Shown in pieces: positions 15,818 through 56,650 of a stretch of 64,000 bases of DNA (position 1 is its first letter; each line of letters starts with the position of its first letter). The stretch is from Candidatus Magasanikiibacteriota bacterium (GTDB lineage Bacteria; Patescibacteriota; Patescibacteriia; Magasanikbacterales; UBA922). Both the position numbers and the translations under genes were made by a program. The stretch covers positions 42,305 to 106,304 of the forward strand of contig JABJHO010000014.1 in NCBI GenBank assembly GCA_018661775.1, in the 5' to 3' direction. The notes beneath the pieces were generated by a model. The model was not told the origin of the DNA, did no database searches, and was given only the letters and a program-made list of their open reading frames with translations.

Positions 15818-17854
15818 ATGAACAATCAAGAAGGGACAAAGCGCGTAAGAATGCGTTGGGGAATGGTAAGTATTACTATTTGTTTTTTGGCTATGCTCGG
15901 GTTTATATTCCCGAAGTATACAAATGTTGCTATTAACAATATTAATTCTTTGGCATATCTAGGATTACCAAACATATCGGAAGAGTCTTTTCGGTTGGGT
16001 CTAGATTTGCAAGGCGGTGCACATTTAATATATGAGGCAGACGTACAACACGTGGCAATCGAAGATCGTGCAACTGCAGTAGAAGGTGTGCGAGATGCGG
16101 TTGAGCGCCGAGTAAACGGGACGGGAGTTTCTGAACCAAATGTCCAAACAGCGCGTGTGGGTGAGGCATATAGGCTTATTGTTGATCTTCCAGGTATTGA
16201 AAATGTAAATGAAGCAATAAAACTTATAGGGGAGACACCGGTGCTAGAATTTAAGGAAGAAAATGATGTACCATCAAGGGAGCTTAATGAAGAAGAGAGA
16301 GAGTTAATAACACAAACAAATAGTACAGCAAAATCACGTTCAGAGGAGATAGCAGCCCGAGTGGCAGGTGGTGAGTCTTTTGAAGAGCTTGTTTCTGAGC
16401 TTTCTGAAGACACGATCACAAAAAATAATGGAGGGAGTTTGGGAAATGTTGAGGCAGGTCTGAGTATAACAGGCCCACTTTATGATTGGGCGAAGACTCA
16501 TGTGGATGGGGACATTTCTGAAACACCAATAGAAACAGAGCTGGGATATCACGTTGTAAAGCGCGGGAAAGATGGTGAGTCAAAAGAAAAAGTTTCAGCG
16601 AGCCATATACTAATCTGTTATTTTGGTGCACAGGGTTGTGAAGATGAAACATACACAAAAGAGTCGGCACTAGAAAAAGCACAAGAACTTTTTACTCAAG
16701 CAAATGCTGAAAATTTTGCTGATTTAGCAAAAGAATTTTCTACTGGACCAAGTAAGGGTGCGGGTGGGGACCTTGGTTCTTTTGGGCGCGGTATGATGAT
16801 ACCTGCGTTTGAAGAGGTAGTGTTTTCTGCAGAAGTGGGACAAATTGTAGGGCCAGTTGAAACTGATTTTGGGTATCATGTGATTTATAAGACCGATGTG
16901 GAGGAGGTTGCAACGTATGGCCTTGCTCATATTATGAGTAAAAAGCTAACAGAAAGAGAAGTTCTCCCACCGCAGGATTCATGGAAATCAACAGAGCTTT
17001 CCGGAAAACAACTTGAGCGGGCGGACGTTGCTATTGATCCGCAAACAGGTGCCGTACAAGTTTCTCTTGTTTTTGATAAGGAAGGAAAAAAACTATTTGA
17101 AGATATTACACGAAGAAACCTTAATAAACCTGTTGCAATCTTTTTAGATGGCTCTCCTATTAGTATACCAACAGTTCAGGCCGTCATCGGTGGAGGGGAG
17201 GCGGTGATTACTGGATCATTTACCATTCCAGAAGCAAAACTTTTATCTCAAAGACTTAATACGGGTGCATTACCTGTTCCTATTACTCTTGTATCCCAGC
17301 AGGCTATTGGTGCAAGTTTGGGGGCCGAATCACTGGTAAAGAGTTTGCATGCCGGAATAATTGCTATTATATTGGTAATGCTCTTTATGGTTCTGTATTA
17401 TAGATTACCAGGGGTACTGGCAGTTATTTCTTTAAGCATATATATTGTTGCTGCACTTGCTATTTTTAAATTAATAGGCGTGACATTGACACTAGCTGGA
17501 ATTGCTGGATTTATCCTCTCTATTGGTATGGCGGTTGATGCAAATGTACTGATTTTTGAAAGAATGAAGGAGGAGCTGCGCGAAGGGAAGAGTTTGAAAG
17601 TTGCGGTGGAAGAAGGGTTTGTGCGTGCGTGGACATCTATACGAGATGGAAATATTTCAACACTTATTACCTGTGTATTGTTGGTTGGGTTTGGTGCAAG
17701 TTTTGTTCAGGGGTTTGCTGCAACATTGTCAATTGGTATTTTATTGAGCATGTTTTCGGCGATTACCATTACACGATTGTTTTTGCGTGCAATAGTGCCA
17801 CTATTTTCTCGGTACGGCAATAGACTCTTTTTAGGATTTACTGAAAAAAAATAA
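15818..17854 (+). CDS. secD: Protein translocase subunit SecD with an inserted parvulin-type PPIase region
   Basis: 678 aa. SecD blocks LGLDLQGGAHL, VSEPNVQ and the C-terminal 6-TM core, with a PpiC-like segment (residues ~258-360) in the periplasmic P1 domain. Confidence 0.9.
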   Translation: MNNQEGTKRVRMRWGMVSITICFLAMLGFIFPKYTNVAINNINSLAYLGLPNISEESFRLGLDLQGGAHLIYEADVQHVAIEDRATAVEGVRDAVERRVNGTGVSEPNVQTARVGEAYRLIVDLPGIENVNEAIKLIGETPVLEFKEENDVPSRELNEEERELITQTNSTAKSRSEEIAARVAGGESFEELVSELSEDTITKNNGGSLGNVEAGLSITGPLYDWAKTHVDGDISETPIETELGYHVVKRGKDGESKEKVSASHILICYFGAQGCEDETYTKESALEKAQELFTQANAENFADLAKEFSTGPSKGAGGDLGSFGRGMMIPAFEEVVFSAEVGQIVGPVETDFGYHVIYKTDVEEVATYGLAHIMSKKLTEREVLPPQDSWKSTELSGKQLERADVAIDPQTGAVQVSLVFDKEGKKLFEDITRRNLNKPVAIFLDGSPISIPTVQAVIGGGEAVITGSFTIPEAKLLSQRLNTGALPVPITLVSQQAIGASLGAESLVKSLHAGIIAIILVMLFMVLYYRLPGVLAVISLSIYIVAALAIFKLIGVTLTLAGIAGFILSIGMAVDANVLIFERMKEELREGKSLKVAVEEGFVRAWTSIRDGNISTLITCVLLVGFGASFVQGFAATLSIGILLSMFSAITITRLFLRAIVPLFSRYGNRLFLGFTEKK

Positions 17855-31377: not shown

Positions 31378-32808
31378 ATGGAATTACACACATTATCAAT
31401 TGCCGAAGCAAGAAAAGGTTTGGATGACAAACAGTTTTCTTCTGTTGAGCTGACACAGGCGTGTTTGGAAAGAATTGCACAAAGAAATGATGAGATTAAT
31501 GCATTTATTACGGTTACCGAAGAGTTGGCACTTACAGAAGCACAAAAGGCTGACACAAGAATTGCACAAGGGGAGGTAGAAATGCTTACCGGTATTCCGT
31601 TTGGTGTAAAGGATGCTATTTGTGTGCAGGGGGTTCGTACTACTGGTGCAGCCAAGATTTTGGATAATTATACCGCGCCATATGAGGCAACCGTTATCAC
31701 GAGGATAAGAAAACAAGGTGCGGTACTTTTGGGAAAACAAAATTGTGATGGTTTTAGTCATGGGGCAAGCAATGAAAACTCCATGTATGGTCCGGTAAAA
31801 AATCCAATAGACACCACAAAAGTACCTGGTGGTTCTTCTGGTGGTTCAGCAGCTGCTGTTGCAGACAATCAATGCATATTTTCTATCGGAGGAGACACTG
31901 GCGGGTCCATTCGTCAGCCAGCAAGTTTGTGTGGTGTGGTTGGGATGAGACCAAGTTATGGGAGAAATTCTCGATATGGCATTATGGCTTTGGCAAGTTC
32001 TTTGGATGTAATAGGTCCTCTCACAAAAACGGTAGAAGATGCTGCGTTGCTTATGGAAATTATGGCTGGACATGACCCAAAAGATGCCACAACGGTGGTA
32101 GACCATATTCCTGACTATAGTAAAAAAAGTCAAACAGATGTTGCTGGCTTGAAGATAGGAGTGCCAAAAGAGTATTTTTCACAAGATGGTGTAGACCAAG
32201 AAGTGCAAGAACGTATATACCAAAATATAAAGTCATTAGAAAAGCAGGGGTGTACTGTAGTAGAAGTTTCTCTTCCACACACACGATACGCAATTGCAGC
32301 GTATTATGTTCTTATGTCTTCTGAGGACAGCTCAAATTTAGCACGGCTCGATGGTGTTCGGTATGGTGTGCGAGAGGCGCAAGATACGCTGTATAATACG
32401 TATAGCAACTCAAGAGCCGAAGGGTTTCCAGAAGAGGTAAAGCGTAGGATTATGATGGGAACGTATGTGCTGTCTGCTGGATACTATGAAGCGTATTACA
32501 AAAAAGCACAAAAAGTACGGACACTTATTGCACAGGATTTTGAGACTGTGTTCTCGCAAGTTGATGTACTTATTTCCGCAACCTCGCCATTTACTGCATT
32601 TGGGATTGGGGAAAAGTCACAAGATCCCCTTAGCATGTATCTTGCTGATGTTTTAGTGAGTCCAGCCTCTCTTGCTGGTGTGCCAGCACTATCTGTTCCA
32701 GTGGGTACTGCGAGTAATGGCTTACCGATTGGCTTGCAGGTGATCGGACCACGCCTTGGTGAGAGTTGTGTGTTGCAGGTTGGAAATAGTATTTTTAATA
32801 ACCAATAA
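31378..32808 (+). CDS. gatA: Glu/Asp-tRNA amidotransferase subunit A
   Basis: 476 aa. Amidase signature GGSSGGSAAAVA and GGDTGGSIRQPAS. Confidence 0.95.
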   Translation: MELHTLSIAEARKGLDDKQFSSVELTQACLERIAQRNDEINAFITVTEELALTEAQKADTRIAQGEVEMLTGIPFGVKDAICVQGVRTTGAAKILDNYTAPYEATVITRIRKQGAVLLGKQNCDGFSHGASNENSMYGPVKNPIDTTKVPGGSSGGSAAAVADNQCIFSIGGDTGGSIRQPASLCGVVGMRPSYGRNSRYGIMALASSLDVIGPLTKTVEDAALLMEIMAGHDPKDATTVVDHIPDYSKKSQTDVAGLKIGVPKEYFSQDGVDQEVQERIYQNIKSLEKQGCTVVEVSLPHTRYAIAAYYVLMSSEDSSNLARLDGVRYGVREAQDTLYNTYSNSRAEGFPEEVKRRIMMGTYVLSAGYYEAYYKKAQKVRTLIAQDFETVFSQVDVLISATSPFTAFGIGEKSQDPLSMYLADVLVSPASLAGVPALSVPVGTASNGLPIGLQVIGPRLGESCVLQVGNSIFNNQ

Positions 32809-32818
32809 TAATTATCGT

Positions 32819-34228
32819 ATGAAAAAAGCTGATATACAAAAAATGGAATCACAATCAAGGCAGTCTTTTACGTATGCAACGCATGATATTCAAGATTATC
32901 GACAGTCTTGGCGGATATTTCGTATTATGGCTGAATTTGTCGAAGGCTATTCCTTTCTTTCGACGCTAAAAAATGAAATTACTATTTTTGGATCAGCACG
33001 TTTTTCTCCAGATGATCCGTATTATATTATTGCCAGAGAATTAGGAAAGATGTTGGGAGAAAAAGGGCATACCATTATTACAGGCGGTGGTCCTGGTATT
33101 ATGGAAGCAGCAAATCGTGGGGCGCATGACGCTGGTGCAGAGTCTGTGGGGCTAAACATACAATTACCTTTTGAGCAGATACTCAATGCACATACAACCA
33201 AATCTGCATCATTTAATTATTTTTTTACACGCAAAGTAATGTTAACTTCACCTGCGACAGCATTTGTGTGTTTTCCTGGTGGTTTTGGTACAATGGATGA
33301 ATTTTTTGAGGTGGTAGATTTGTGTGAGCTTGGCATGATGCAGTCCGTGCCAATTGTCTTAGTTGGAAGTTCATACTGGAACCCACTTTTGGAATTTCTT
33401 CGAAAGAGTTGTTGCGCTACAGGTTCTATTACAGAAGAACAAATAGATAAAATACATGTTGTTGACACGGCAGAAGAAGCATATATATTGTTACAGGATG
33501 TTGAAGATCGGCCACATGACCCAAACATGGTATTGCATCAGTTTAGCCAAGATGGCAATATAGAGTGGAAGGTATTTAGGATAATGGCAGAACTGGTAGA
33601 AGGGTTTGAGTTTTTGGTAAACATGAAAGAAGATATTACGGTACTTGGAACAAAACACATACCAAAAGATTCGCATTATTATTCTGATGCAGAAAAACTT
33701 GGTAAACAGCTTGTTGATCACGGTTTTTCTGTGGTTACCGGTGGAAAATACGGTATTGCAGAGGCAGTAAACAAAGGTGCATATGAAGCGGGTGGTGCGT
33801 CATACGGACTTGGTATGGATGTTGGTGGGCATAGGGAGCTTAACCCATATCTTACGCAGTCAATGTTATTTCGTTTTGCGTTTACAAGAAAGCTTATTGT
33901 TACGGCACCATCGAAAGGGTTTGTATTTTTCCCAGGTGGGTTTAGTACGCTTCATCAGTTATTTGAAGTGCTTACACTTATTCAAACAAAGAAAATGGCA
34001 AAACGACCTATTATATTATACGACAGAGAATTTTGGCAACCATTGCATGAGTTTATTAAAACAACTATGGTGCATGACGTTGGGACAGTGTCGGATGAAG
34101 ACGATGAGTTGTATCAAATCGTAGACAGTGTGGAGGCTATACATAAAATACTTGGCGAGGCACCCGAAGAGTCAAAACAGTTTACGATGCATTGGGATGA
34201 CGAAACTGCAGCGCACTATAAGCAGTAA
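32819..34228 (+). CDS. Tandem double-LOG (TIGR00730-like) protein; second domain degenerate
   Basis: Domain 1 has TGGGPGIMEAANRGA and PGGFGTMDEFFEV. Domain 2 has TGGKYGIAEAVNKGA and PGGFSTLHQLFEV. ATG 32819 is preferred over the track start 32756. Confidence 0.8.
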   Translation: MKKADIQKMESQSRQSFTYATHDIQDYRQSWRIFRIMAEFVEGYSFLSTLKNEITIFGSARFSPDDPYYIIARELGKMLGEKGHTIITGGGPGIMEAANRGAHDAGAESVGLNIQLPFEQILNAHTTKSASFNYFFTRKVMLTSPATAFVCFPGGFGTMDEFFEVVDLCELGMMQSVPIVLVGSSYWNPLLEFLRKSCCATGSITEEQIDKIHVVDTAEEAYILLQDVEDRPHDPNMVLHQFSQDGNIEWKVFRIMAELVEGFEFLVNMKEDITVLGTKHIPKDSHYYSDAEKLGKQLVDHGFSVVTGGKYGIAEAVNKGAYEAGGASYGLGMDVGGHRELNPYLTQSMLFRFAFTRKLIVTAPSKGFVFFPGGFSTLHQLFEVLTLIQTKKMAKRPIILYDREFWQPLHEFIKTTMVHDVGTVSDEDDELYQIVDSVEAIHKILGEAPEESKQFTMHWDDETAAHYKQ

Positions 34229-43063: not shown

Positions 43064-43636
43064 TTATACTTGCCGCACTTGGTGCGTTAAGCTGAATATA
43101 GCAAATAATAGACTTATTCCCAAAATACTGTTTGCAGTTACCACGCTTACTTCCAGGCTTATGCCACAAAAACTCTTTAGCAGAGGAATGAGCATGAGCA
43201 CACTTATGCCGATTTTTTCGATATTCGTTTTTAGTTTTCCAGATATTGACGCCATTATATTAGGTGTTTCACCCATTTTTTTTCCGTATACTATTTTATA
43301 TACACGAAGCATGGTGAGTGCCAGGCCAATTGATATAATAGGTACACTGATTATCGCGTAGACTTCTGACCAAAAATATAGTAAAAAACTGATGGTAAAT
43401 ACTTTGTCTGCAAGAGGGTCGAGGAATGCTCCGGTGTGCGAACTTTGCCCAAACACTCTTGCAGCCTTGCCGTCAAAATAATCCATTGACCATGCAAAAC
43501 CAAAAAGTATGGAGGAGTGTAGATGCATTTCTTTTTCTTGAAAATGCAAAATGAATGGAATGCATAGCATGCCAAAAAGGGTAAGGGTATTAGGGAGCCA
43601 GCCTTTTATGGCGTCCTTGTATATAAAAGTAAACAA
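43064..43636 (-). CDS. CDP-alcohol phosphatidyltransferase (PgsA-like)
   Basis: DGKAARVFGQSSHTGAFLDPLADK matches the D-G-x2-A-R-x8-G-x3-D-x3-D motif. Confidence 0.75.
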   Translation of the reverse strand: MFTFIYKDAIKGWLPNTLTLFGMLCIPFILHFQEKEMHLHSSILFGFAWSMDYFDGKAARVFGQSSHTGAFLDPLADKVFTISFLLYFWSEVYAIISVPIISIGLALTMLRVYKIVYGKKMGETPNIMASISGKLKTNIEKIGISVLMLIPLLKSFCGISLEVSVVTANSILGISLLFAIFSLTHQVRQV

Positions 43637-43721: not shown

Positions 43722-43749
43722 TTGTCAATATTAAAAAATTTTGTATAAT
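43722..43749 (+). promoter_or_regulatory. Sigma-70-type promoter at the left edge of the pentose-phosphate module
   Basis: TTGTCA, 16-nt spacer, TATAAT. Confidence 0.45.
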
Positions 43750-43786
43750 GTGGGTATATTTACTGGTTCATCTTTTATGAATAAAG

Positions 43787-44202
43787 CCTCAGACACTTTT
43801 TCTATTGGTGGTAGTAAGGTTTTGAAGAAAAGTTCAGAAGACTTAGTTACAGTTATTGGTGCGGGGGTTACTTTGTACGAAGCGCTTAAAGCTTATGATG
43901 CGCTACAAGAGAATAAAATTAATATTAGAGTAATTGATTTATATAGTATTAAACCTCTTGATCAAAGCACTTTAAATAAAGCGGCCAAAGAAACTAAGGC
44001 TGTAATTGTGGCTGAAGATCATTTTGAGGCTGGTGGAATAGGGGAGGCGGTAAAGTCAGCTTTATCTACTTCATCTACTCCTATTTATTCACTCGCCGTT
44101 AAGAAAATGACTAAGAGTGGTAGTCCAGAGCAATTATTAAAATATGAAAATATTGATAGCACAGCTATTGTTAGAAAAGTTAAGCAAATATTAAAAAAAT
44201 AA
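43787..44202 (+). pseudogene. Transketolase C-terminal domain only (truncated remnant or stand-alone fragment)
   Basis: 138 aa. FSIGGSKVLKKSSEDLVTVIGAGVTLYEALKA..IRVIDLYSIKPLD..AVIVAEDHFEAGGIGEAV is the TK_C domain. The thiamine-PP and Pyr domains are missing, and an in-frame stop lies at 43732-43734. Confidence 0.7.
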
Positions 44203-44206
44203 ACTT

Positions 44207-44881
44207 ATGAAAATTTTTATTGATTCTGGATCAATTGACGAAATTAAAAAAGCAGCTGCCTCTGGAGTGATTGATGGCGTGACAACTAATCCTAGTTTAA
44301 TCGCCAAGGAGGGTAAAGATTTTAAAACTGTTATTAAAACTATTGGTGAGTTGTTCGATACCGAGCATAGTGCTCATTGTGAATGTCCGGTTAGTGCTGA
44401 AGTGGTTAGTATTGCTGCCAAAGAAATGATCGTTGAAGCCAAAAAGATTGCCAAGATTCATAAAAAGGTTGTGGTTAAGATTCCGTTAATCCCGGAAGGA
44501 ATCAAGGCAGTAAAAGAATTGTCTGGTTTAGGGATTAAAACTAACGTTACTTTGTGTTTTACGGCCGCCCAGGCATTGCTTGCGGCTAAGGCTGGTGCGA
44601 CCTATGTCAGTCCTTTTATTGGACGGTTAAATGATATTGATCAACGTGGTTTAGATTTAATTAGAGAGATAAAACAAATTTTTACTAATTATGATATCAA
44701 AACGCAAATTTTAGCAGCTAGTATTAGATCACCTCGGCAAGTTGTTGAAATAGCACTGATTGGAGCAGACGTTGTTACAATACCTTATAAAGTTTTTGAA
44801 AAATTATTTAACCATCCGCTTACAGACAAGGGACTAAAACAGTTTTTGGCAGATTGGGATCAATATAAAAAAACACAATAA
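44207..44881 (+). CDS. tal: Transaldolase / fructose-6-phosphate aldolase (short type)
   Basis: 224 aa. [21 protein letters not shown], Schiff-base lysine in VVVKIP, and SPFIGR. Confidence 0.9.
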
Positions 44882-44884
44882 ATT

Positions 44885-47254
44885 ATGAATACATTAAAAA
44901 AAGCTAACATCCCAACAGTTATTGTCGTCTTTGGTGCGACAGGAGATTTGATGGAGAAAAAAATTGCTCCATCTCTTTTGCATTTGTACAAAAATGGTAA
45001 GTTGCCAACTCAGTTTAAGATTGTCGGCGTTGCCAGGAAAAGTAATAGCGATGGTCAGTTTCAGAAATTAGTTGGGGATCATTTAAAAAAACATTCTAAG
45101 CAACATCCATCAAAAGAAAAGTTTAAAAAGTTTTTGGATTATTTTACTTATCAATCAGGCCAGTTTCAAGAACCCAAGACTTATAGCGAGCTTAGTAAAA
45201 AACTTAAGCAGATAGATGATGAGTGGGGAGTATGTACTAATAAGCTTTTTTATCTAGCAGTCCCGCCAAAGTTTTATCAAACTATATTTAATAATTTATC
45301 AGCTTCTGGACTGACTAAGCCTTGTAGTGAGGAAGAGGGTTGGACTAGAGTATTAGTTGAAAAGCCATTTGGCAGTGATTTAAAAACAGCCAAAGAATTA
45401 GAAGAGGTGTTGGGTAAGCTCTTTAGAGAGGAACAGATTTTTAGAATTGATCATTACTTGGCTAAAGAAATGCTGCAAAATATTTTGGCTGTTAGGTTTT
45501 CTAATAATTTATTTGAACAAACTTTTAATAATCGGTTTATTGATAGCATTGAATTATACTTACATGAAAAGAAAGGGGCCGAAGGTCGCGGTAGTTTTTA
45601 TGATAGCGTTGGAACCCTAAAAGATGTTGGCCAAAATCATTTGTTGCAGATGTTGGCTCTTGTCACTATGGATATGCCACAAAGTTATAATGCTAAACAT
45701 ATTCGTGACAAGAGGTATGAATTAATGAAACATTTAATTCCATTGAAAAAATCCGAGATGAGCACCAATACTTTTAGAGCTCAATACGAAGGATATACTC
45801 AGGTAGAGGGCGTTAATGCAAAATCAAAAACAGAAACATTTTTTAAACTGCAGTGCTTCTTAAATCATCCAAGGTGGCGAGATGTACCTATTACTATTGA
45901 AAGTGGTAAGGGTATGGCTGCACCTAAAAAAGGTATTGCTTTGAATTTAAAACACACTATGCCATGTTTGTGCCCTAAAGGCTCAGAGCATTATCGTAAT
46001 AAGATAATTCTTACTATGGAACCAGAAGAGGGTATTACAATTGAATTCTGGGCCAAGAAACCGGGATTTCAGTGGCAGATAGAAAAGAAAGAGTTGAAGT
46101 CTTTTTATCGTAAGAATGCCAAGCAGGCTCAGTATACAGAAGAGTATGAAAAACTTTTATTCGATTGTATTGTCGGGGATCAAACTTTATTTGTTAGCAC
46201 TAAAGAGGTCCTTGCAATGTGGAAGTTTATTGATCCAATTGTTAAAGCCTGGGAAAGTAAAATAGTGTCACTAGAAAAATATAAAAAAGGATCGAAGACT
46301 ATTTCTACTTCTGTAAAGTTTAGTTCAACTAAAGTTAAAGATGCAGGACAAATGCCTTTAGAAATTGGAATTGTTGGTCTTGGTAAAATGGGTGGTGGTC
46401 TTGCTAGGCAGTTATTAGAAAAAGGCTGGAAGATTCATGGTTATAACAGGAGCCCAGAGGAGACACGTAAATTAAAAAAAGATGGATTAATTCCAGAATT
46501 TAGCTTAGAGGATATGGTAAAGAATCTACCATCACCAAAGATTGTTTGGCTAATGGTTCCTTCTGGTAAGCCAGTTGATGAAAATATTAATAAGCTAGCA
46601 AAGCTTTTGGGTAAAGGGGATTATATTATTGATGGGGGTAATTCTTTTTTCCAAAATACTGTCAAACGATCTCGTAAAGTTACGGCTAAGAAAATTAATT
46701 TTATGGATTGTGGTGTGTCTGGAGGTCCCGAGGGAGCGCGCCACGGGGCTTGTTTGATGATTGGTGGTAAAAAAGTTGATTATGATTTCTTAAAGCCTTT
46801 GTATTCTGATTTGGCTATTCATCAAGGCGAAGAATTTTTCCCTGGTTATGGAGCTGGCCATTTTGTAAAGATGGTTCATAATGGTATTGAATATGGCATG
46901 ATGCAGTCTATTGCTGAAGGATTTGCGATTATGAGAAAATCAAAATATAAATTACACTTGCGTAAAATTGCAGAGGTTTATAACCATGGTAGTGTAATTG
47001 AATCTAGTTTGATCAATTGGATGGGAAATGCTTTTGCCTTATTTGGCGATGATTTAAAAGGTGTGTCTGGTAGAGCCTCACATAGTGGCGAAGGGCTTTG
47101 GACAACACAGGTAGCGCATTCTTTGGGAATATCCGATAAGGTTATTCACGAGTCACTAAAAGCTAGAGAGAGAAGCCAGAAAAAACCAAGTTACCAAGGT
47201 AAGATTATTCAGGCTTTAAGAAATCAGTTTGGCGGACATAATTTAAAAAAATAA
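44885..47254 (+). CDS. Fused glucose-6-phosphate dehydrogenase / 6-phosphogluconate dehydrogenase (decarboxylating, short form)
   Basis: 789 aa single ORF. G6PD blocks are GATGDLMEKK, EKPFG and RIDHYLAKE. From about residue 485 come IGIVGLGKMGGGLA, IDGGNS, GVSGGPEGARHG and FVKMVHNGIEYGMMQ (Gnd-like). Confidence 0.85.
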   Translation: MNTLKKANIPTVIVVFGATGDLMEKKIAPSLLHLYKNGKLPTQFKIVGVARKSNSDGQFQKLVGDHLKKHSKQHPSKEKFKKFLDYFTYQSGQFQEPKTYSELSKKLKQIDDEWGVCTNKLFYLAVPPKFYQTIFNNLSASGLTKPCSEEEGWTRVLVEKPFGSDLKTAKELEEVLGKLFREEQIFRIDHYLAKEMLQNILAVRFSNNLFEQTFNNRFIDSIELYLHEKKGAEGRGSFYDSVGTLKDVGQNHLLQMLALVTMDMPQSYNAKHIRDKRYELMKHLIPLKKSEMSTNTFRAQYEGYTQVEGVNAKSKTETFFKLQCFLNHPRWRDVPITIESGKGMAAPKKGIALNLKHTMPCLCPKGSEHYRNKIILTMEPEEGITIEFWAKKPGFQWQIEKKELKSFYRKNAKQAQYTEEYEKLLFDCIVGDQTLFVSTKEVLAMWKFIDPIVKAWESKIVSLEKYKKGSKTISTSVKFSSTKVKDAGQMPLEIGIVGLGKMGGGLARQLLEKGWKIHGYNRSPEETRKLKKDGLIPEFSLEDMVKNLPSPKIVWLMVPSGKPVDENINKLAKLLGKGDYIIDGGNSFFQNTVKRSRKVTAKKINFMDCGVSGGPEGARHGACLMIGGKKVDYDFLKPLYSDLAIHQGEEFFPGYGAGHFVKMVHNGIEYGMMQSIAEGFAIMRKSKYKLHLRKIAEVYNHGSVIESSLINWMGNAFALFGDDLKGVSGRASHSGEGLWTTQVAHSLGISDKVIHESLKARERSQKKPSYQGKIIQALRNQFGGHNLKK

Positions 47255-47256
47255 CT

Positions 47257-48096
47257 ATGTATTTTTCAACAGCTGATGAAATGGAAAAACTTGATGAGCT
47301 TGCCGTAGAACATGGTCTTGAGATTAGACAGATGATGGAACTGGCTGGTTGGCATATGGTAGAAGTTTTTAATAAACTTAGTATTGGTTTATCCGACCAA
47401 ATTGTTATTGTTGTTGGTAAGGGTAATAAAGGTGGCGATGGGTTAAGCGCTGCTAGGCATTTAGTTAACCATGGCTATAAAAACATATCGATCATTTTAG
47501 TTTCTAAAGATATTAAGCCAGACTCACAGCATCACTTAGACTTGTTAGTCAAGATGGATATGCCAATTATGGTTTATTCAGAAAATCAAGACTTGGCAAA
47601 AGAAAAAATAGATTCAGCCGATATTATTATGGATTCATTGATTGGCTATCATTTACAAGGAGAACCTCGTGGAGACTTTGCTGAGTTAATTGAAATAATA
47701 AATAATGCATCAGGAAAAGTAATCTCTTATGATCTGCCCTCTGGGGTAGATGCAACCACAGGGGAGTGTCAGAAGGTTTGTATTAAGGCAGATGCAACTT
47801 TAACTTTAGCTATGCCAAAGAAAATTTTTAATACAAATTCGGGCAAGGAATCCTCTGGACAAGTGTTTGCTCTAGACATTGGTGTTCCAGAATTTTTATA
47901 CAACAAAATAGCATCAGGATCTAGGCCAGAATCAAACCATAGTGTGCGAAAAAATAGCGCCAATGCATCCGCTTCATTTAGGTTAATGTCTGTGTATTTT
48001 TCCACAGTCTCTAGTTGTGTGTCTTGGAACCAGTTTCCGCACATTGTTTCTTTCAGGTCTGACTTCATCCATGCAAATTTTTTATCTTTCACATAA
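47257..48096 (+). CDS. nnrE: NAD(P)H-hydrate epimerase (YjeF_N / NnrE); 3' end reads into the antisense of the neighbouring gene
   Basis: GKGNKGGDGLSAARHL, DSLIGYHLQG, YDLPSGVDATTG and ALDIGVP. Family similarity ends near 47915, and the remaining ~60 codons have no family resemblance. Confidence 0.75.
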   Translation: MYFSTADEMEKLDELAVEHGLEIRQMMELAGWHMVEVFNKLSIGLSDQIVIVVGKGNKGGDGLSAARHLVNHGYKNISIILVSKDIKPDSQHHLDLLVKMDMPIMVYSENQDLAKEKIDSADIIMDSLIGYHLQGEPRGDFAELIEIINNASGKVISYDLPSGVDATTGECQKVCIKADATLTLAMPKKIFNTNSGKESSGQVFALDIGVPEFLYNKIASGSRPESNHSVRKNSANASASFRLMSVYFSTVSSCVSWNQFPHIVSFRSDFIHANFLSFT

Positions 48097-53875: not shown

Positions 53876-56650
53876 ATGGATTTTCAGAAGAACCCAAACA
53901 TTCCAGTACTTCCGTGTCAGACCTGTCAGATGACTGGTGCGGTTGGTATGAAGGGGTGTCATACGTGCAAGGGGTATATGGTTGCGCGAGCAGCTCGTGA
54001 CAATGTGTATTTTTTTGGTATGGCGCTTACGCGGCACCATCTTGCCTTACAGCGCGCGCGAAGAGGGCTCTACGTGTTCGAAATGATTGGAGCGCTGATT
54101 TTTACCGGGCTTGCGTTTCTTTTTTTCTGGTGGACTACGAGACCCACATTGTCAATGGCTACTGCTATTGATGGCCTACAGTATAGTTCAGGACATGGTT
54201 TTTTTAGTTCATATTTCTGGATTGAGGTGGATCATCCTGGTAAAGCGTTTTTCTTTCTTGGTTTGTTGGGGATTTGTGGCTTGATTTATCGTTACATGCG
54301 CTCCCATACAGCACCAGCAGAAGTAGAAATGAGGCCATATCGTCAAGATGCTGTGAAGGAGAAGGAAAAGGTGCTAGGAGACTGGAAACAAGTGAAAAAT
54401 TTTCCGCACAATAGTCAAATAGATATTGTGAAGGCTTACACGAGTGGGGCGAAACTCTCGATTGAGCGTGCATATGCGTTAGCGGATGCGCAGAATAGTT
54501 CTCAACTGCAGGCAGAGCACGTGTTTGTTGCACTCCTTGAACATATGGATGTAAAGGGTATTTTCATTCGATTGGGTATTCCCGTGAAATTGCTTTCTGC
54601 AAAAATTTCCGAGGGGTTTGTTGCACAAAAAGGGAATCGTGCTCCATTGCCAAATGATGATGTGATTCAGATTCTTTTTCATGCGTATGAACAGGCATAT
54701 GATGCCAGAGAACCCCAAGTCCACGTTACGGAGTTGCTGCTTGCTACGGTGGGGCAATCTTCTCATATTCAGGGCATTCTTTATGATATAGAAGTCGATA
54801 ATGAGAAGCTTTATGGCGTTGTGGAGTGGGTAAGAATTAGAAATAAATTACGCAGACAATATCACGCAACGCTCCGCGCAGGTTCTCACGTTTCTAAACA
54901 TGGCATAGACAAGGCCATGACAGCTGTTGCAACACCATTTTTAAATCATTTTAGTACCGACCTTACGCTTGCATCGATGTACGGCCATCATGAGCCATGT
55001 GTAGCAAGAGACAAAGAGATTGATGAAATATTTCGTATTGTGGAGGCTGGCAGACAAAGTATTGTGCTAGTAGGTGAACATGGTGTAGGGAAGCGGAGTA
55101 TTATAGAAGGTATTGTTGAACGCATGATTCAAGATGTGGTACCAAAGCGCATGCAAGATAAGCGGTTGGTGCAAATATCTACCTCGGCTTTGCTGGCAGG
55201 AACCACCGTTTCTGGGGCGCAAGAACGATTGTTGCATATGGCACAAGAGATTGCAAAAGCAAAAAATATTATTTTGTGTATTCATAATATTAGCGACCTT
55301 ATGGGTGGTTCAGCAGATGCCCCGGGATTAGACGTGGCTGGTACACTTTCTGATTTAATGCGCTCTGGCAACATTCTTGTTTTGGCAACTTCTACGGTAG
55401 ATGGGTTTAATAAACATATCTCCAGGTCTCGACTTGCAAGCGCAATGACACGGGTAAACATAAAAGAAATGGAAACTGACCAAGCCATTCAAGTGCTGCA
55501 GGCAAAGGCTGGGTATATTGAATATACGCATAATGTCTTTTTTTCTTACAATTCTCTTGCCGCGGCAGTAGAATATGCAAAGCGGTTTTTTCATGACCAG
55601 TGTTTGCCACAAAGTGCTATTGAAATTATAAGTGAGGTGGCAAGTTATACAAAAAATACACGCGGCGAACATGTACTGGTAAGTCAGGATGATGTGGCGC
55701 GTGTCACAGGAGAAAAAACAGGTATTCCAACCACGTCTCTTACAGAAAATGAGGCAGACAAGTTGTTGCACCTAGAAGATGAAATGCATAAGCGCGTTGT
55801 TGGGCAGTTTGAGGCGGTTAATAGTGTGGCAAATGCGTTGCGACGAGCAAGAATGCAAGTGCGATCATTAGATCGCCCGATGGCAAACTTTTTATTTTTG
55901 GGGTCAACCGGTGTAGGAAAAACAGAGCTGGCAAAAACAATAGCCGAAGTCTATTTTGGAGGAGAAGAGCAAATGATTCGGGTTGATATGAGTGAATATC
56001 AGAATACAGATAGTATATATAGACTTATTGGTCAGCCAGGGAAACAAGGTACAGGGTTGTTAACAGAAGCGGTAAGACAAAAACCGTTTTCTTTGGTTTT
56101 GCTTGATGAGTTAGAAAAGGCGCATCCCAGAATACTCGATATTTTTTTACAAGTATTTGATGATGGTAGACTTACCGACAGTGTTGGCCGTGTGATTGAT
56201 TTTACCAATACCATTATTATTGCAACGTCAAATGCAGGCACCGCATTTATCCAATCAGCAATTAGAGAACATAAAAACATGGAGGATATTCGCAAAACAT
56301 TGTTTTCACAAGAGCTCAAACAGCATTTTCGACCAGAATTTATTAACAGGTTTGACGGGGTAGTCGTCTTTAAGCCACTGCTTTTGGATGATATTAAACA
56401 TATTGCAGGAATCATGCTTGCTCGGGTAGAAGCAGAATTAGACGAAAAAGGTATGAAGTTTCGTGTCACCGAAGAAGGGTTGTCTACTTTGGCGCAACAT
56501 GGGTATGATCCAGAATATGGCGCAAGACCAATGAGAAGGGCGATTCAAGATCATGTTGAAAATGCTATTGCAGAAATTCTCTTGCGTGGTGAAGCTTCAA
56601 GAGGAGAGACTATTGTGTATGATGGCGAACATGGTGTGTATGTGGAATAG
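53876..56650 (+). CDS. Membrane-anchored ClpA/B-family AAA+ ATPase with an N-terminal CxxC zinc finger
   Basis: 924 aa from ATG 53876. It carries:
- Zinc finger CQTCQMTG..CHTCKG.
- Two TM helices.
- Two Clp_N repeats.
- D1 with GEHGVGKRS but Walker B replaced by ILCIHNISD.
- An intact D2 (GSTGVGKTELAK, LVLLDELEKA).
- No middle domain and no IGF/IGL loop. Confidence 0.85.
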   Translation: MDFQKNPNIPVLPCQTCQMTGAVGMKGCHTCKGYMVARAARDNVYFFGMALTRHHLALQRARRGLYVFEMIGALIFTGLAFLFFWWTTRPTLSMATAIDGLQYSSGHGFFSSYFWIEVDHPGKAFFFLGLLGICGLIYRYMRSHTAPAEVEMRPYRQDAVKEKEKVLGDWKQVKNFPHNSQIDIVKAYTSGAKLSIERAYALADAQNSSQLQAEHVFVALLEHMDVKGIFIRLGIPVKLLSAKISEGFVAQKGNRAPLPNDDVIQILFHAYEQAYDAREPQVHVTELLLATVGQSSHIQGILYDIEVDNEKLYGVVEWVRIRNKLRRQYHATLRAGSHVSKHGIDKAMTAVATPFLNHFSTDLTLASMYGHHEPCVARDKEIDEIFRIVEAGRQSIVLVGEHGVGKRSIIEGIVERMIQDVVPKRMQDKRLVQISTSALLAGTTVSGAQERLLHMAQEIAKAKNIILCIHNISDLMGGSADAPGLDVAGTLSDLMRSGNILVLATSTVDGFNKHISRSRLASAMTRVNIKEMETDQAIQVLQAKAGYIEYTHNVFFSYNSLAAAVEYAKRFFHDQCLPQSAIEIISEVASYTKNTRGEHVLVSQDDVARVTGEKTGIPTTSLTENEADKLLHLEDEMHKRVVGQFEAVNSVANALRRARMQVRSLDRPMANFLFLGSTGVGKTELAKTIAEVYFGGEEQMIRVDMSEYQNTDSIYRLIGQPGKQGTGLLTEAVRQKPFSLVLLDELEKAHPRILDIFLQVFDDGRLTDSVGRVIDFTNTIIIATSNAGTAFIQSAIREHKNMEDIRKTLFSQELKQHFRPEFINRFDGVVVFKPLLLDDIKHIAGIMLARVEAELDEKGMKFRVTEEGLSTLAQHGYDPEYGARPMRRAIQDHVENAIAEILLRGEASRGETIVYDGEHGVYVE

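Follow-up and report, generated by a model that had tools for sequence, protein, structure and literature searches.

Results

An operon with a fused zwf::gnd gene

The window analysed here, the whole stretch of 64,000 nucleotides (64 kb) from a Candidatus Magasanikbacteria-like bacterium (Patescibacteria/CPR), contains an operon in the order tkt'-tal-zwf::gnd-yjeF_N, with gaps of 2-4 nt, in which one ORF joins the sequences of glucose-6-phosphate dehydrogenase (G6PD, Zwf) and 6-phosphogluconate dehydrogenase (6PGDH, Gnd). The features of the region are as follows:

43722..43749, + strand: best sigma-70-like promoter match of the region, TTGTCA-16-TATAAT (11/12 positions; consensus match only)
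43741..44202, + strand: ORF with only the C-terminal domain of transketolase (Pfam, Transketolase_C domain only)
44207..44881, + strand: gene of the short-form transaldolase/fructose-6-phosphate aldolase family (PF00923, 7.7e-62; TIGR00875, 288.9 vs 245.95)
44885..47254, + strand: fused zwf::gnd ORF, 789 aa plus stop codon (ORF listing, Pfam, NCBIfam)
44915..46306, + strand: G6PD (Zwf) half, residues 11-474 (TIGR00871, PDB sequence search, Foldseek)
46307..46360, + strand: inter-enzyme tether, residues 475-492, Ser/Thr/Lys-rich
46361..47251, + strand: predicted short-chain decarboxylating 6PGDH (Gnd) half, residues 493-789 (NF007161, TIGR00872, PDB alignment)
47257..48096, + strand: gene for a YjeF_N-type NAD(P)H-hydrate epimerase (PF03853, 3.7e-40; TIGR00197, 134.8 vs 88.6)

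The transaldolase-family gene ends 3 nt upstream of the fused ORF and the YjeF_N gene begins 2 nt past its stop codon. The Transketolase_C ORF, downstream of the sigma-70-like match, is most likely what is left of the 3' end of tkt and the gene that opens the operon; in a tblastn search the 609-aa Tkt of a relative (L087) matched through its residues 472-608 only, at window positions 43783-44193 with 61% identity. In that relative the order is rpiB-rpe-tkt-tal-zwf::gnd. The gene neighbourhood of zwf::gnd is not conserved between genomes, and elsewhere it includes peroxiredoxins, thioredoxin-reductase-like and glutaredoxin genes, flavodoxin and Ni-SOD.

Translation of positions 44885-47254 (+) starts with ATG and meets no internal stop, as expected from the original prediction, which had been made from the sequence alone and had proposed one uninterrupted 789-aa ORF. 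Pfam recognised in it G6PD_N (residues 14-199), G6PD_C (201-474), NAD_binding_2 (493-644) and 6PGD (658-768), the domain pairs that had been anticipated, and the NCBIfam cut-offs for zwf, gnd_rel and NF007161 were all passed. The motifs quoted for the fusion were also found, those of G6PD in the N-terminal half and those of Gnd in the C-terminal half. Three other independent assemblies, each from another sample, encode an identical 789-aa protein and differ by 1-2 nucleotides, all of them synonymous, which speaks against an overlooked stop codon or frameshift, and one member of the same 90% cluster has NCBI records out of several MAGs. Furthermore, 160 distinct full-length homologues of the same architecture were aligned, and re-derivation from raw DNA gave 22 distinct fused loci. 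No stop or frameshift separates the halves, and the Zwf–Gnd fusion is therefore genuine, while both of its constituent enzymes are ordinary.

The Zwf half

The N-terminal half exceeded the TIGR00871 cut-off (471.7 versus 400.6 bits, residues 11-473), gave Pfam E-values of 1.7e-61 for G6PD_N and 4.7e-79 for G6PD_C (PF00479 and PF02781), and had the G6PD 9emm as its top PDB sequence match (8.6e-83). It also has the G6PD fold, made up of a Rossmann and a beta+alpha domain, with a Foldseek TM of 0.86 to the Leuconostoc mesenteroides enzyme 1H93 and, when the AlphaFold model was superposed on 1H93/1DPG, a target-normalised TM of 0.85-0.86 over ~471 columns. GATGDLMEKK starts at residue 17, GATGDL (17-22) being the GxxGDL dinucleotide fingerprint; EKPFG (159-163) conforms to EKPxG and RIDHYLAKE (187-195) to RIDHYLGKE with its Asp-His-Tyr...Lys, and QNH follows at 250-252. 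The conserved residues comprise GATGDL, R51, EKPFG, D189-H190-Y191, K194 and H252, among which E159, K160, P161, H190, Y191, K194 and H252 are invariant across the 160 fused homologues. Assigning roles after the L. mesenteroides and human enzymes, we take H252 to be the catalytic His, equivalent to L. mesenteroides H240, and D189-H190-Y191...K194 to be substrate-binding. The Zwf half is predicted to be an orthodox glucose-6-phosphate dehydrogenase.

The Gnd half

The C-terminal half scored highest with NF007161 (340.7 bits, cut-off 271) and also passed TIGR00872 (318.7 bits, cut-off 297.2), whereas the sister families scored low: 60.1 versus 291.6 for 3-hydroxyisobutyrate dehydrogenase (HIBADH) and 54.6 versus 340.75 for tartronate semialdehyde reductase. 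The motif IGIVGLGKMGGGLA starts at residue 494, IDGGNS at 582, GVSGGPEGARHG at 610 and FVKMVHNGIEYGMMQ at 660. Several residues of this half are invariant in the 160 homologues, namely K662, H665, N666 and E669 within FVKMVHNGIEYG, the Ser-Gly-Gly loop S612-G613-G614 in GVSGGPEG, R761, and R779, F782 and H785 of the C-terminal RX2FGXH motif (R779-N-Q-F782-G-G-H785). We take K662/H665/N666/E669 to be the equivalents of K183, H186, N187 and E190 of sheep 6PGDH, that is, the catalytic Lys/Glu pair with its His and Asn. The RX2FGXH tail has been reported to be essential to substrate binding in a tetrameric short-chain 6PGDH (bioRxiv 10.64898/2026.01.21.700892).

Short-chain 6PGDHs are defined by a length of ~300 aa and a single hemi-domain (PMC8900737; bioRxiv 10.64898/2026.01.21.700892). 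The Gnd half has 297 residues (332 aa in 6vpb and 353 aa in 10gw) and one unduplicated helical hemi-domain; it aligned end to end, at ~1e-55, with the short-chain enzymes 10gw/6xeq, 6vpb, 4e21 and 8ihe, and long-chain models matched it at model positions ~1-295 of 476 alone. Stand-alone tetrameric enzymes of this class, solved from Gluconobacter oxydans, Gluconacetobacter diazotrophicus, Geobacter metallireducens and Mycobacterium tuberculosis (Gnd2) (10gw/6xeq, 6vpb, 4e21, 8ihe/9ijb), share with it the length, the single hemi-domain, the Lys/His/Asn/Glu set and RX2FGXH; they are free-standing, whereas the Gnd of the window is tethered to G6PD at its N-terminus. A non-decarboxylating beta-hydroxyacid dehydrogenase was considered for this half and rejected, the sister families reaching 25-60 bits against cut-offs of 290-450. 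The Gnd half is predicted to be an orthodox short-chain decarboxylating 6PGDH, and the profile scores and catalytic residues of both halves uphold the proposal that a single polypeptide contains both G6PD and decarboxylating 6PGDH in intact form.

The tether

In the alignment of 160 homologues the mean column identity falls to 0.32 at residues 467-492 (nt 46283-46360), versus 0.65-0.73 in the domains; this tether of ~18-26 aa is the only poorly conserved stretch of the fused protein, and the distance from Y466 to G495 varies from 17 to 40 residues. The AlphaFold monomer model (mean pLDDT 83, pTM 0.63) is confident in both halves and drops below a pLDDT of 50 at residues 481-488 (nt 46325-46348). 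Both intervals agree with the linker originally placed at about nt 46300-46350, and the two halves fold independently of each other, joined by a tether that is flexible.

Cofactor signature

The Gnd half carries N521-R522-S523, an NADP-type Asn-Arg-Ser/Thr triplet. In the beta2-alpha2 turn Asn-Arg-Thr binds the 2'-phosphate and sets NADP+ specificity, enzymes with Asp first being NAD+-preferring, and mutagenesis of the conserved Asn and Arg in the Lactococcus lactis and G. oxydans enzymes has shown their role in NADP+ specificity (PMC8900737). The solved stand-alone short-chain enzymes have Asp at this position, in contrast to the Asn-Arg-Ser of the window. Among the 160 fused homologues the NR[ST] triplet is found in 119, and in 20 Asp replaces Asn at the specificity position. 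Because of these 20 sequences, and because TIGR00872 is titled NAD(+)-dependent, cofactor use is predicted not to be uniform across the fused family.

Absence of a linked lactonase gene

No member of the lactonase family was detected in the operon or in the 64-kb window (Pfam on the larger ORFs, and precomputed Pfam for 34.9-57 kb), and Pfam found no PF01182 domain in the fused ORF. A CPR-Pgl profile built from 120 CPR-type Pgl sequences, which recovered 4/4 positive controls at 1e-90 to 5e-99, had no match in the six reading frames of the window and of the fused loci; a lactonase hidden in the tether or nearby was rejected on these grounds. A pgl gene was found beside the fused gene in none of 22 distinct fused loci (flanks up to 10 kb), and none of the 120 CPR-type Pgl proteins listed has a longest contig of the same length as a contig with a fused gene, which is a weak check. 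A PF01182 lactonase gene is present in five of the eight informative unfused CPR-like zwf→gnd operons, against 0/19 for the fused loci in this comparison; among the unfused operons the type of cofactor signature and the presence of pgl followed no clean pattern. The claim that the module holds no 6-phosphogluconolactonase is thus borne out; the accompanying idea that lactone hydrolysis is spontaneous or foreign stands at the level of gene linkage.

Distribution of the fusion and its unfused relatives

A database search for the same architecture revealed that the fusion is not peculiar to the window: it is a widespread and common family of Patescibacteria that is already in the public databases. 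All the source-named fused homologues are Patescibacteria except one labelled Woesearchaeota, and they are filed under single-enzyme names, 'glucose-6-phosphate dehydrogenase' at NCBI and '6-phosphogluconate dehydrogenase' at JGI. The unfused CPR operons L005 (Ca. Moraniibacteriota), L092 (Patescibacteria) and L102 have the same zwf→gnd order, with 12-nt gaps or a 4-nt overlap; L102 was considered as a fusion read through under an alternative genetic code, and this was rejected because its stop is TAA and not TGA. The unfused zwf→gnd(→pgl) operons, as in L005 and L092, encode proteins homologous to the fused one (40-50% identity) and lie within pentose-phosphate operons with rpiB, rpe, tkt and tal, and they make two polypeptides whereas the fused gene makes one. 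The opposite order, gnd then zwf, was fused in 0/42 metagenome loci, and GTDB genomes showed, among the matches listed, mostly non-CPR gnd→zwf operons together with the unfused operon of L005. In a neighbour-joining tree of Zwf halves, built without support values, fused and unfused sequences are interleaved in a star-like radiation.

Discussion

All these data point to the fused ORF being, with good probability, a bifunctional enzyme of the oxidative pentose-phosphate branch. The N-terminal Zwf half would oxidise glucose-6-phosphate to 6-phosphoglucono-delta-lactone with reduction of NADP+; the lactone would leave the enzyme and be converted to 6-phosphogluconate, spontaneously or by a lactonase encoded elsewhere; and the C-terminal short-chain Gnd half would then produce ribulose-5-phosphate and CO2 while reducing a second nicotinamide cofactor, most likely NADP+. 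We infer both activities, the cofactor preference, the oligomeric state, the route of lactone hydrolysis and the role as NADPH supplier. Since the lactone has to be hydrolysed before the second reaction, we expect no direct channel, and the fusion would more plausibly fix a 1:1 stoichiometry, co-expression and co-localisation of both NADPH-yielding steps in a minimal genome. It probably originated when a zwf→gnd operon, like those still unfused in other CPR genomes, lost a stop codon. In 6PGDHs of the short-chain class, the tail at the C-terminus closes over the active site of the neighbouring subunit; the Zwf-then-Gnd order would leave the C-terminal helix and tail of Gnd free, and this free C-terminus may be compatible with helix exchange between the subunits of a 6PGDH homotetramer. 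Points against this reading are that fusing non-consecutive steps has no obvious kinetic advantage, that the gene neighbourhood varies from genome to genome, and that the truncated transketolase of the operon leaves the downstream fate of ribulose-5-phosphate in doubt.

That the fusion is real can hardly be doubted. In related genomes unfused zwf and gnd genes lie 12 nt apart, so that a single error could mimic a fusion, and two adjacent genes could have been merged by a missed stop codon or frameshift during sequencing or assembly; nevertheless, the identical product with synonymous differences only in three other assemblies, the cluster member recorded from several MAGs, the 160 aligned homologues and the 22 loci re-derived from raw DNA lead us to reject such an artefact as practically excluded. 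We also consider it highly improbable that one half is inactive, or has been recruited to another substrate or as a regulatory nucleotide-binding module. The 6PGDH fold is common to HIBADH and tartronate-semialdehyde reductases, and weak matches to both were obtained, but these stay far below their cut-offs while the 6PGDH models exceed theirs, none of the residues for catalysis and substrate binding in either enzyme varies among 160 sequences, and the 6PGDH-specific RX2FGXH motif is retained. Post-translational cleavage of a precursor into separate Zwf and Gnd, functionally equal to a two-gene operon, would be favoured by the flexible, exposed tether and has a parallel in diatoms, for which Kroth et al. 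(2008, PMC2173943) give evidence that certain metabolic fusion proteins may undergo cleavage. However, the tether varies in sequence and length with no conserved cleavage motif among the 160 homologues, the gene has no linked dedicated protease, and the single ORF has been kept across lineages of just 34-73% identity, which makes cleavage very unlikely.

A further alternative keeps the enzyme bifunctional and assigns an NAD+ preference to the Gnd half, with a yield of one NADPH and one NADH per glucose-6-phosphate. Several characterised short-chain 6PGDHs behave in this way; the closest solved ones have Asp at the specificity position ('DRT', 'DRD', 'DLN') and at least one of them prefers NAD+, and the Gly-x-Gly-x-x-Gly fingerprint, present in the window's protein, has been described as typical of a mainly tetrameric cluster (PMC8900737). 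The title of TIGR00872 and the fused homologues with Asp point in the same direction. On the other hand, the window's protein itself has Asn521-Arg522-Ser523, a triplet whose Asn and Arg have been tied to NADP+ specificity by mutagenesis of other enzymes, and NF007161, its top-scoring Gnd model, is named 'NADP-dependent phosphogluconate dehydrogenase', and we regard an NAD+ preference as unlikely. An output of two NADPH from the fused bifunctional enzyme is likely, and the original description of both steps as NADPH-yielding stands for the second step on its Asn-Arg-Ser signature.

Our literature searches found no description of a bacterial Zwf–Gnd fusion, although their coverage of subscription journals was sparse and this absence is not proof. 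The original prediction knew of fusions of G6PD with the lactonase only, which was incomplete, because a G6PDH/6PGDH fusion gene model had been reported in the diatom Phaeodactylum tricornutum (protein 54663 / XP_002183714.1; Kroth et al. 2008 PMC2173943; Stover et al. 2011 PMC3148214). This model joins the same steps 1 and 3 of the oxidative branch, also without a lactonase domain: its G6PD runs without a stop codon into an in-frame 6PGD across a 39-nt spacer (the spacers of diatom fusions have 8-25 aa), a description that the architecture in the window fits. The legitimacy of the diatom fusion was later questioned after re-annotation, and it was reported to be restricted to one species. Compared by description, the diatom protein is eukaryotic whereas that of the window is a member of a bacterial family that is conserved and has a short-chain Gnd; since short-chain 6PGDHs occur solely in prokaryotes (PMC8900737), the Gnd part in the diatom is presumably of the long-chain, dimeric type. 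Plasmodium GluPho, the G6PD::6PGL of Giardia and Trichomonas and metazoan H6PD are likewise single-polypeptide fusions of G6PD with an enzyme of the oxidative branch, and their G6PD half is homologous to that of the window (H6PD 8em2 matched at 4.8e-42). In them, however, the partner is the step 2 lactonase and the joined steps are consecutive, whereas the partner here is step 3; the fused ORF has no Glucosamine_iso/lactonase domain, its sole non-domain stretch being the tether, and is not a member of this group.

The fusion overturns nothing that is known about either enzyme, and its interest lies elsewhere. Because the fused proteins bear single-enzyme names, a pathway reconstruction limited to a single function for each gene could take the oxidative branch to be incomplete; in a published survey this branch is patchy in CPR (PMC7304191). 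For biochemistry, a conserved natural fusion of non-consecutive steps offers a test case for the benefit of fusion without direct channelling, and also suits asking if the lactonase is dispensable. Moreover, two NAD(P)H per glucose-6-phosphate from one polypeptide would make the enzyme a candidate for cofactor regeneration. A bolder reading, which we hold to be rather unlikely, is that many CPR run a lactonase-free oxidative branch, for which the Zwf–Gnd fusion is the enabling adaptation. The fusion could then position 6PGDH where the lactone is released, or the fused protein could itself accelerate lactone hydrolysis, and the linkage of pgl to unfused operons (5/8) and never to fused genes (0/19) would be explained.

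Finally, the Zwf half contains a clade-specific His-x3-Cys-x-Cys-x5-His loop, in addition to C117 and C147. A further possibility, belonging to the same rather unlikely reading, is that these residues work as a metal or redox switch through which NADPH output is coupled to oxidative stress.

The fused gene and its two halves

The interval 44885-47254 (+) is one ORF of 789 codons with an ATG start and zero internal stops, which bears out the single uninterrupted 789-aa frame of the original prediction, and each of the motifs quoted there was located where it had been placed in the half for glucose-6-phosphate dehydrogenase (G6PD, Zwf) or in that for 6-phosphogluconate dehydrogenase (6PGDH, Gnd).

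Motifs and Pfam domains of the fused protein
Residue 17, Zwf half: GATGDLMEKK
Residue 159, Zwf half: EKPFG
Residue 187, Zwf half: RIDHYLAKE
Residue 494, Gnd half: IGIVGLGKMGGGLA
Residue 582, Gnd half: IDGGNS
Residue 610, Gnd half: GVSGGPEGARHG
Residue 660, Gnd half: FVKMVHNGIEYGMMQ
Residues 14-199: G6PD_N
Residues 201-474: G6PD_C
Residues 493-644: NAD_binding_2
Residues 658-768: 6PGD

Among the NCBIfam models, the Zwf half (residues 11-473) reached 471.7 bits with TIGR00871 (zwf equivalog; cut-off 400.6), and the Gnd half (residues 493-789) reached 340.7 bits with NF007161 (cut-off 271) and 318.7 bits with TIGR00872 'gnd_rel' (cut-off 297.2). The solved structures nearest to the Zwf half are G6PDs (9emm at 8.6e-83), and those nearest to the Gnd half are the short-chain 6PGDHs 10gw/6xeq, 6vpb, 4e21 and 8ihe (~1e-55, end-to-end alignment). 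These results reject the alternative named in the original prediction, a non-decarboxylating beta-hydroxyacid dehydrogenase as C-terminal half; the sister models of that kind gave just 25-60 bits on the Gnd half with cut-offs of ~290-450. An AlphaFold2 model built from a 30-sequence alignment had a mean pLDDT of 83.2 and a pTM of 0.63, both halves being confident and residues 481-488 falling below 50. When this model was compared with the PDB by Foldseek, G6PDs ranked first (target-normalised TM 0.86), and all 50 matches listed were G6PDs with a query-normalised TM of at most 0.54, so that none of these spans both halves. This model of the monomer supports two independent folds with a flexible tether between them.

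The fusion is real. The identical 789-aa product is found on contigs of three other assemblies, in which the ORF shows one or two nucleotide differences from the window, all synonymous, and a one-cluster variant has been deposited from several MAGs (MBT4941659.1 and others, as 'glucose-6-phosphate dehydrogenase [Candidatus Magasanikbacteria bacterium]'). The database search for this architecture that had been proposed was run, and the best 120 clusters are all 768-826 aa long, with 52-73% identity, 97-100% query coverage and the four Pfam domains each; profiles of each half run on raw DNA recovered 24 fused loci (22 distinct). A search with only the junction (residues 420-540) against 1.84 billion representatives gave 33 matches at E<=1e-10, ~25 of which cross the junction and include remoter fused lineages with 34-45% identity. 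The source-named members are all Patescibacteria/CPR (Magasanik-, Roizman-, Levy-, Harrison-, Portnoy-, Taylor-, Colwell- and Woesebacteria, together with 'Microgenomates group', Minisyncoccia and 'Patescibacteria group') apart from one labelled Woesearchaeota, and their database names give one enzyme each and never both. The exception, P0076 (53% identity, labelled 'Candidatus Woesearchaeota archaeon'), reflects either the mis-binning of a CPR contig or gene transfer into a DPANN archaeon.

Conservation and cofactor

In an alignment of 160 distinct full-length fused proteins, the invariant residues of the G6PD half include E159, K160 and P161 of EKPxG, H190, Y191 and K194 of RIDHYLxKE, and H252, the counterpart of the catalytic His in L. 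mesenteroides G6PD. Those of the 6PGDH half include S612-G613-G614, K662, H665, N666, E669, R761 and the RX2FGXH motif (R779-x2-F782-G-x-H785), reported as essential to substrate binding in the tetrameric short-chain 6PGDH (bioRxiv 10.64898/2026.01.21.700892). Mean column identity is 0.65-0.73 across the four domain blocks versus 0.32 over residues 467-492, and the length from Y466 to G495 ranges from 17 to 40 residues. Purifying selection on both enzymes, with a tether of unconstrained sequence between them, would be expected to give this pattern.

The G6PD half keeps Arg51 (Arg in 149/160 fused proteins), the residue that contacts the 2'-phosphate in the human and Leuconostoc G6PDs. The turn that follows strand 2 in the Rossmann fold of Gnd is Asn521-Arg522-Ser523; this triplet is NR[ST] in 119 of the 160 proteins, its first residue being Asn in 137 and Asp in 20, and the same position reads DRT, DRD or DLN in the solved short-chain relatives. 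An Asn-Arg-Thr triplet binds the 2'-phosphate and sets NADP+ specificity in 6PGDH, and Asp replaces Asn in NAD+-preferring enzymes, of which that of Gluconacetobacter (short-chain), with Asp-Arg-Asp, is an example (PMC8900737). Judged from Asn521-Arg522-Ser523 and the retained Arg51, two NADPH per G6P would be the likeliest output of the fused protein.

The Zwf half also presents, at residues 357-369 (window 45953-45991), a clade-specific His-x3-Cys-x-Cys-x5-His loop, KHTMPCLCPKGSEHY, at which ordinary G6PDs have no Cys, and further cysteines at C117 and C147. C361 and C363 are found in ~141/160 fused proteins, and the loop, which sits on a low-confidence loop of the AlphaFold model, is also present in some unfused relatives and deleted from remoter fused lineages. 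It may serve as a metal site or as a redox switch.

Gene order and origin of the fusion

Related CPR genomes have unfused zwf and then gnd, in the order of the fusion and near-contiguous, separated by 12 nt holding two stop codons in Ca. Moraniibacteriota (L005), by a TAA stop and then 9 nt in L102, or overlapping by 4 nt in L092. The fusion could have arisen from such a zwf→gnd pair by the loss of one stop codon or by a small indel. Outside CPR, the usual arrangement is the reverse of the fusion order, with a short-chain gnd lying immediately 5' of zwf in many phyla (L125-L173, L008-L083), and a fused gnd-then-zwf was found at 0 of the 42 metagenome loci classified. The reverse order also dominated among the matches listed in a scan of GTDB genomes. 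We propose a structural reason, namely that the Zwf-then-Gnd order alone would leave free the C-terminal end of Gnd. This end would have to stay so because the subunits of short-chain 6PGDH exchange their C-terminal helices and tails, which close the active site of the neighbouring subunit (PMC8900737; bioRxiv 10.64898/2026.01.21.700892). In a neighbour-joining tree the Zwf halves are star-like, with fused and unfused ones interleaved.

The fused gene lies within a tightly packed + strand cluster with intergenic gaps of 2-4 nt, and the top promoter-like match in this region is TTGTCA-16-TATAAT at 43722-43749.

Genes of the cluster
43741-44202 (+): Transketolase_C-only ORF, 153 aa
44207-44881 (+): short transaldolase/FSA
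44885-47254 (+): fused zwf::gnd
47257-48096 (+): YjeF_N NAD(P)HX epimerase, 279 aa
48100-48351 (+): 83-aa ORF

The Transketolase_C-only ORF is matched by residues 472-608 only (61% identity) of the 609-aa Tkt of L087, a fused relative, and is probably what a rearrangement left behind; unless the genome carries another tkt, the non-oxidative branch would be broken. A CDP-alcohol phosphatidyltransferase gene, 43064-43636 (-), fills the site of the missing 5' part of tkt. The epimerase begins 2 nt past the fusion gene, has the YjeF_N domain without the dehydratase domain, and leaves ~90 C-terminal residues unassigned; the pair looks like cofactor repair coupled to cofactor production. Neighbours in other CPR genomes are variable and frequently redox-related, fused or unfused zwf/gnd lying beside a peroxiredoxin and a flavodoxin (L085), a glutaredoxin, a thioredoxin-reductase-like gene, peroxiredoxins, DsbD and Ni-SOD (L086), an FNR-like reductase (L090) or, adjoining the unfused operon of L005, a thioredoxin-reductase-like gene. 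Such a neighbourhood would fit a role as NADPH supplier in thiol-based defence.

The lactonase step

The claim that the module has no 6-phosphogluconolactonase (Pgl) holds across the window, whose ORFs gave no match to PF01182 or another lactonase family. A profile made from 120 CPR-type Pgl sequences gave zero matches in all reading frames of the window and the fused loci, and recovered four known pgl genes used as positive controls (1e-90 to 5e-99). Of the relatives with a long contig, L087 is the closest (60% identity), and it carries rpiB-rpe-tkt-tal-zwf::gnd, the full pathway minus pgl. In total, pgl is present at 0 of 19 distinct fused loci whose sequence extends 1.1 kb or more downstream versus 5 of 8 unfused CPR-like zwf→gnd loci, where it is inside the operon and mostly right after gnd (Fisher exact p = 0.0007, which overstates independence because the sequences are related).

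CPR also has stand-alone pgl genes distant from any zwf (L091, L093), and therefore the source genome of the window may encode a lactonase elsewhere. A lactonase-free route is chemically feasible as well, since spontaneous hydrolysis of the lactone has been noted (PMC3148214) and a paper that lists a G6PDH-6PGDH-RPE-XPK cascade as part of an in-vitro pathway design never mentions a lactonase in its text (PMC11021460).

Precedents

Much work exists on fusions of G6PD with the lactonase, those of Plasmodium, Giardia and Trichomonas and the metazoan H6PD. For Phaeodactylum tricornutum, a gene model fusing G6PDH with 6PGDH has been reported (PMC2173943); Stover et al. (2011), who re-examined it, saw no further fusion of this kind in the nr database of the day and stated that later annotation had split it (PMC3148214). 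The enzyme pair is the same as here, but the present family differs by its bacterial origin and probably by its short-chain 6PGDH partner. We found no description of a bacterial Zwf–Gnd fusion in the searchable literature, and a survey of ~1000 CPR genomes describes a patchy oxidative branch with the fusion unmentioned (PMC7304191); within that literature the bacterial family appears to be undescribed, though its sequences are public. The gene is a genuine, conserved and predicted bifunctional zwf–gnd gene, of ordinary chemistry and partly precedented architecture, and what further distinguishes its family is the conservation across a large radiation and the negative linkage with the lactonase gene. 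It bears mainly on CPR annotation and pathway reconstruction, and also on the question of a lactonase-free oxidative branch.

Other genes of the window

Locus L001 (20181-20282) and the window (55065-55460) differ by a length change within the ClpB gene and are otherwise 99.96% identical; ClpB is intact in L002 and the window, and its two gene calls in L001 are probably an assembly problem. A 678-aa SecD-like ORF, 15818-17854 (+), has PpiC-type rotamase domain matches (best at residues 253-360) that separate two SecD sub-domains, P1 N-terminal and P1 head, and looks like a translocon subunit with an inserted chaperone module. Finally, a 490-aa ORF, 32756-34228 (+), carries a tandem pair of LOG/'lysine decarboxylase' (SLOG) domains and shares ~50 nt with the end of the GatA-like amidase ORF before it.
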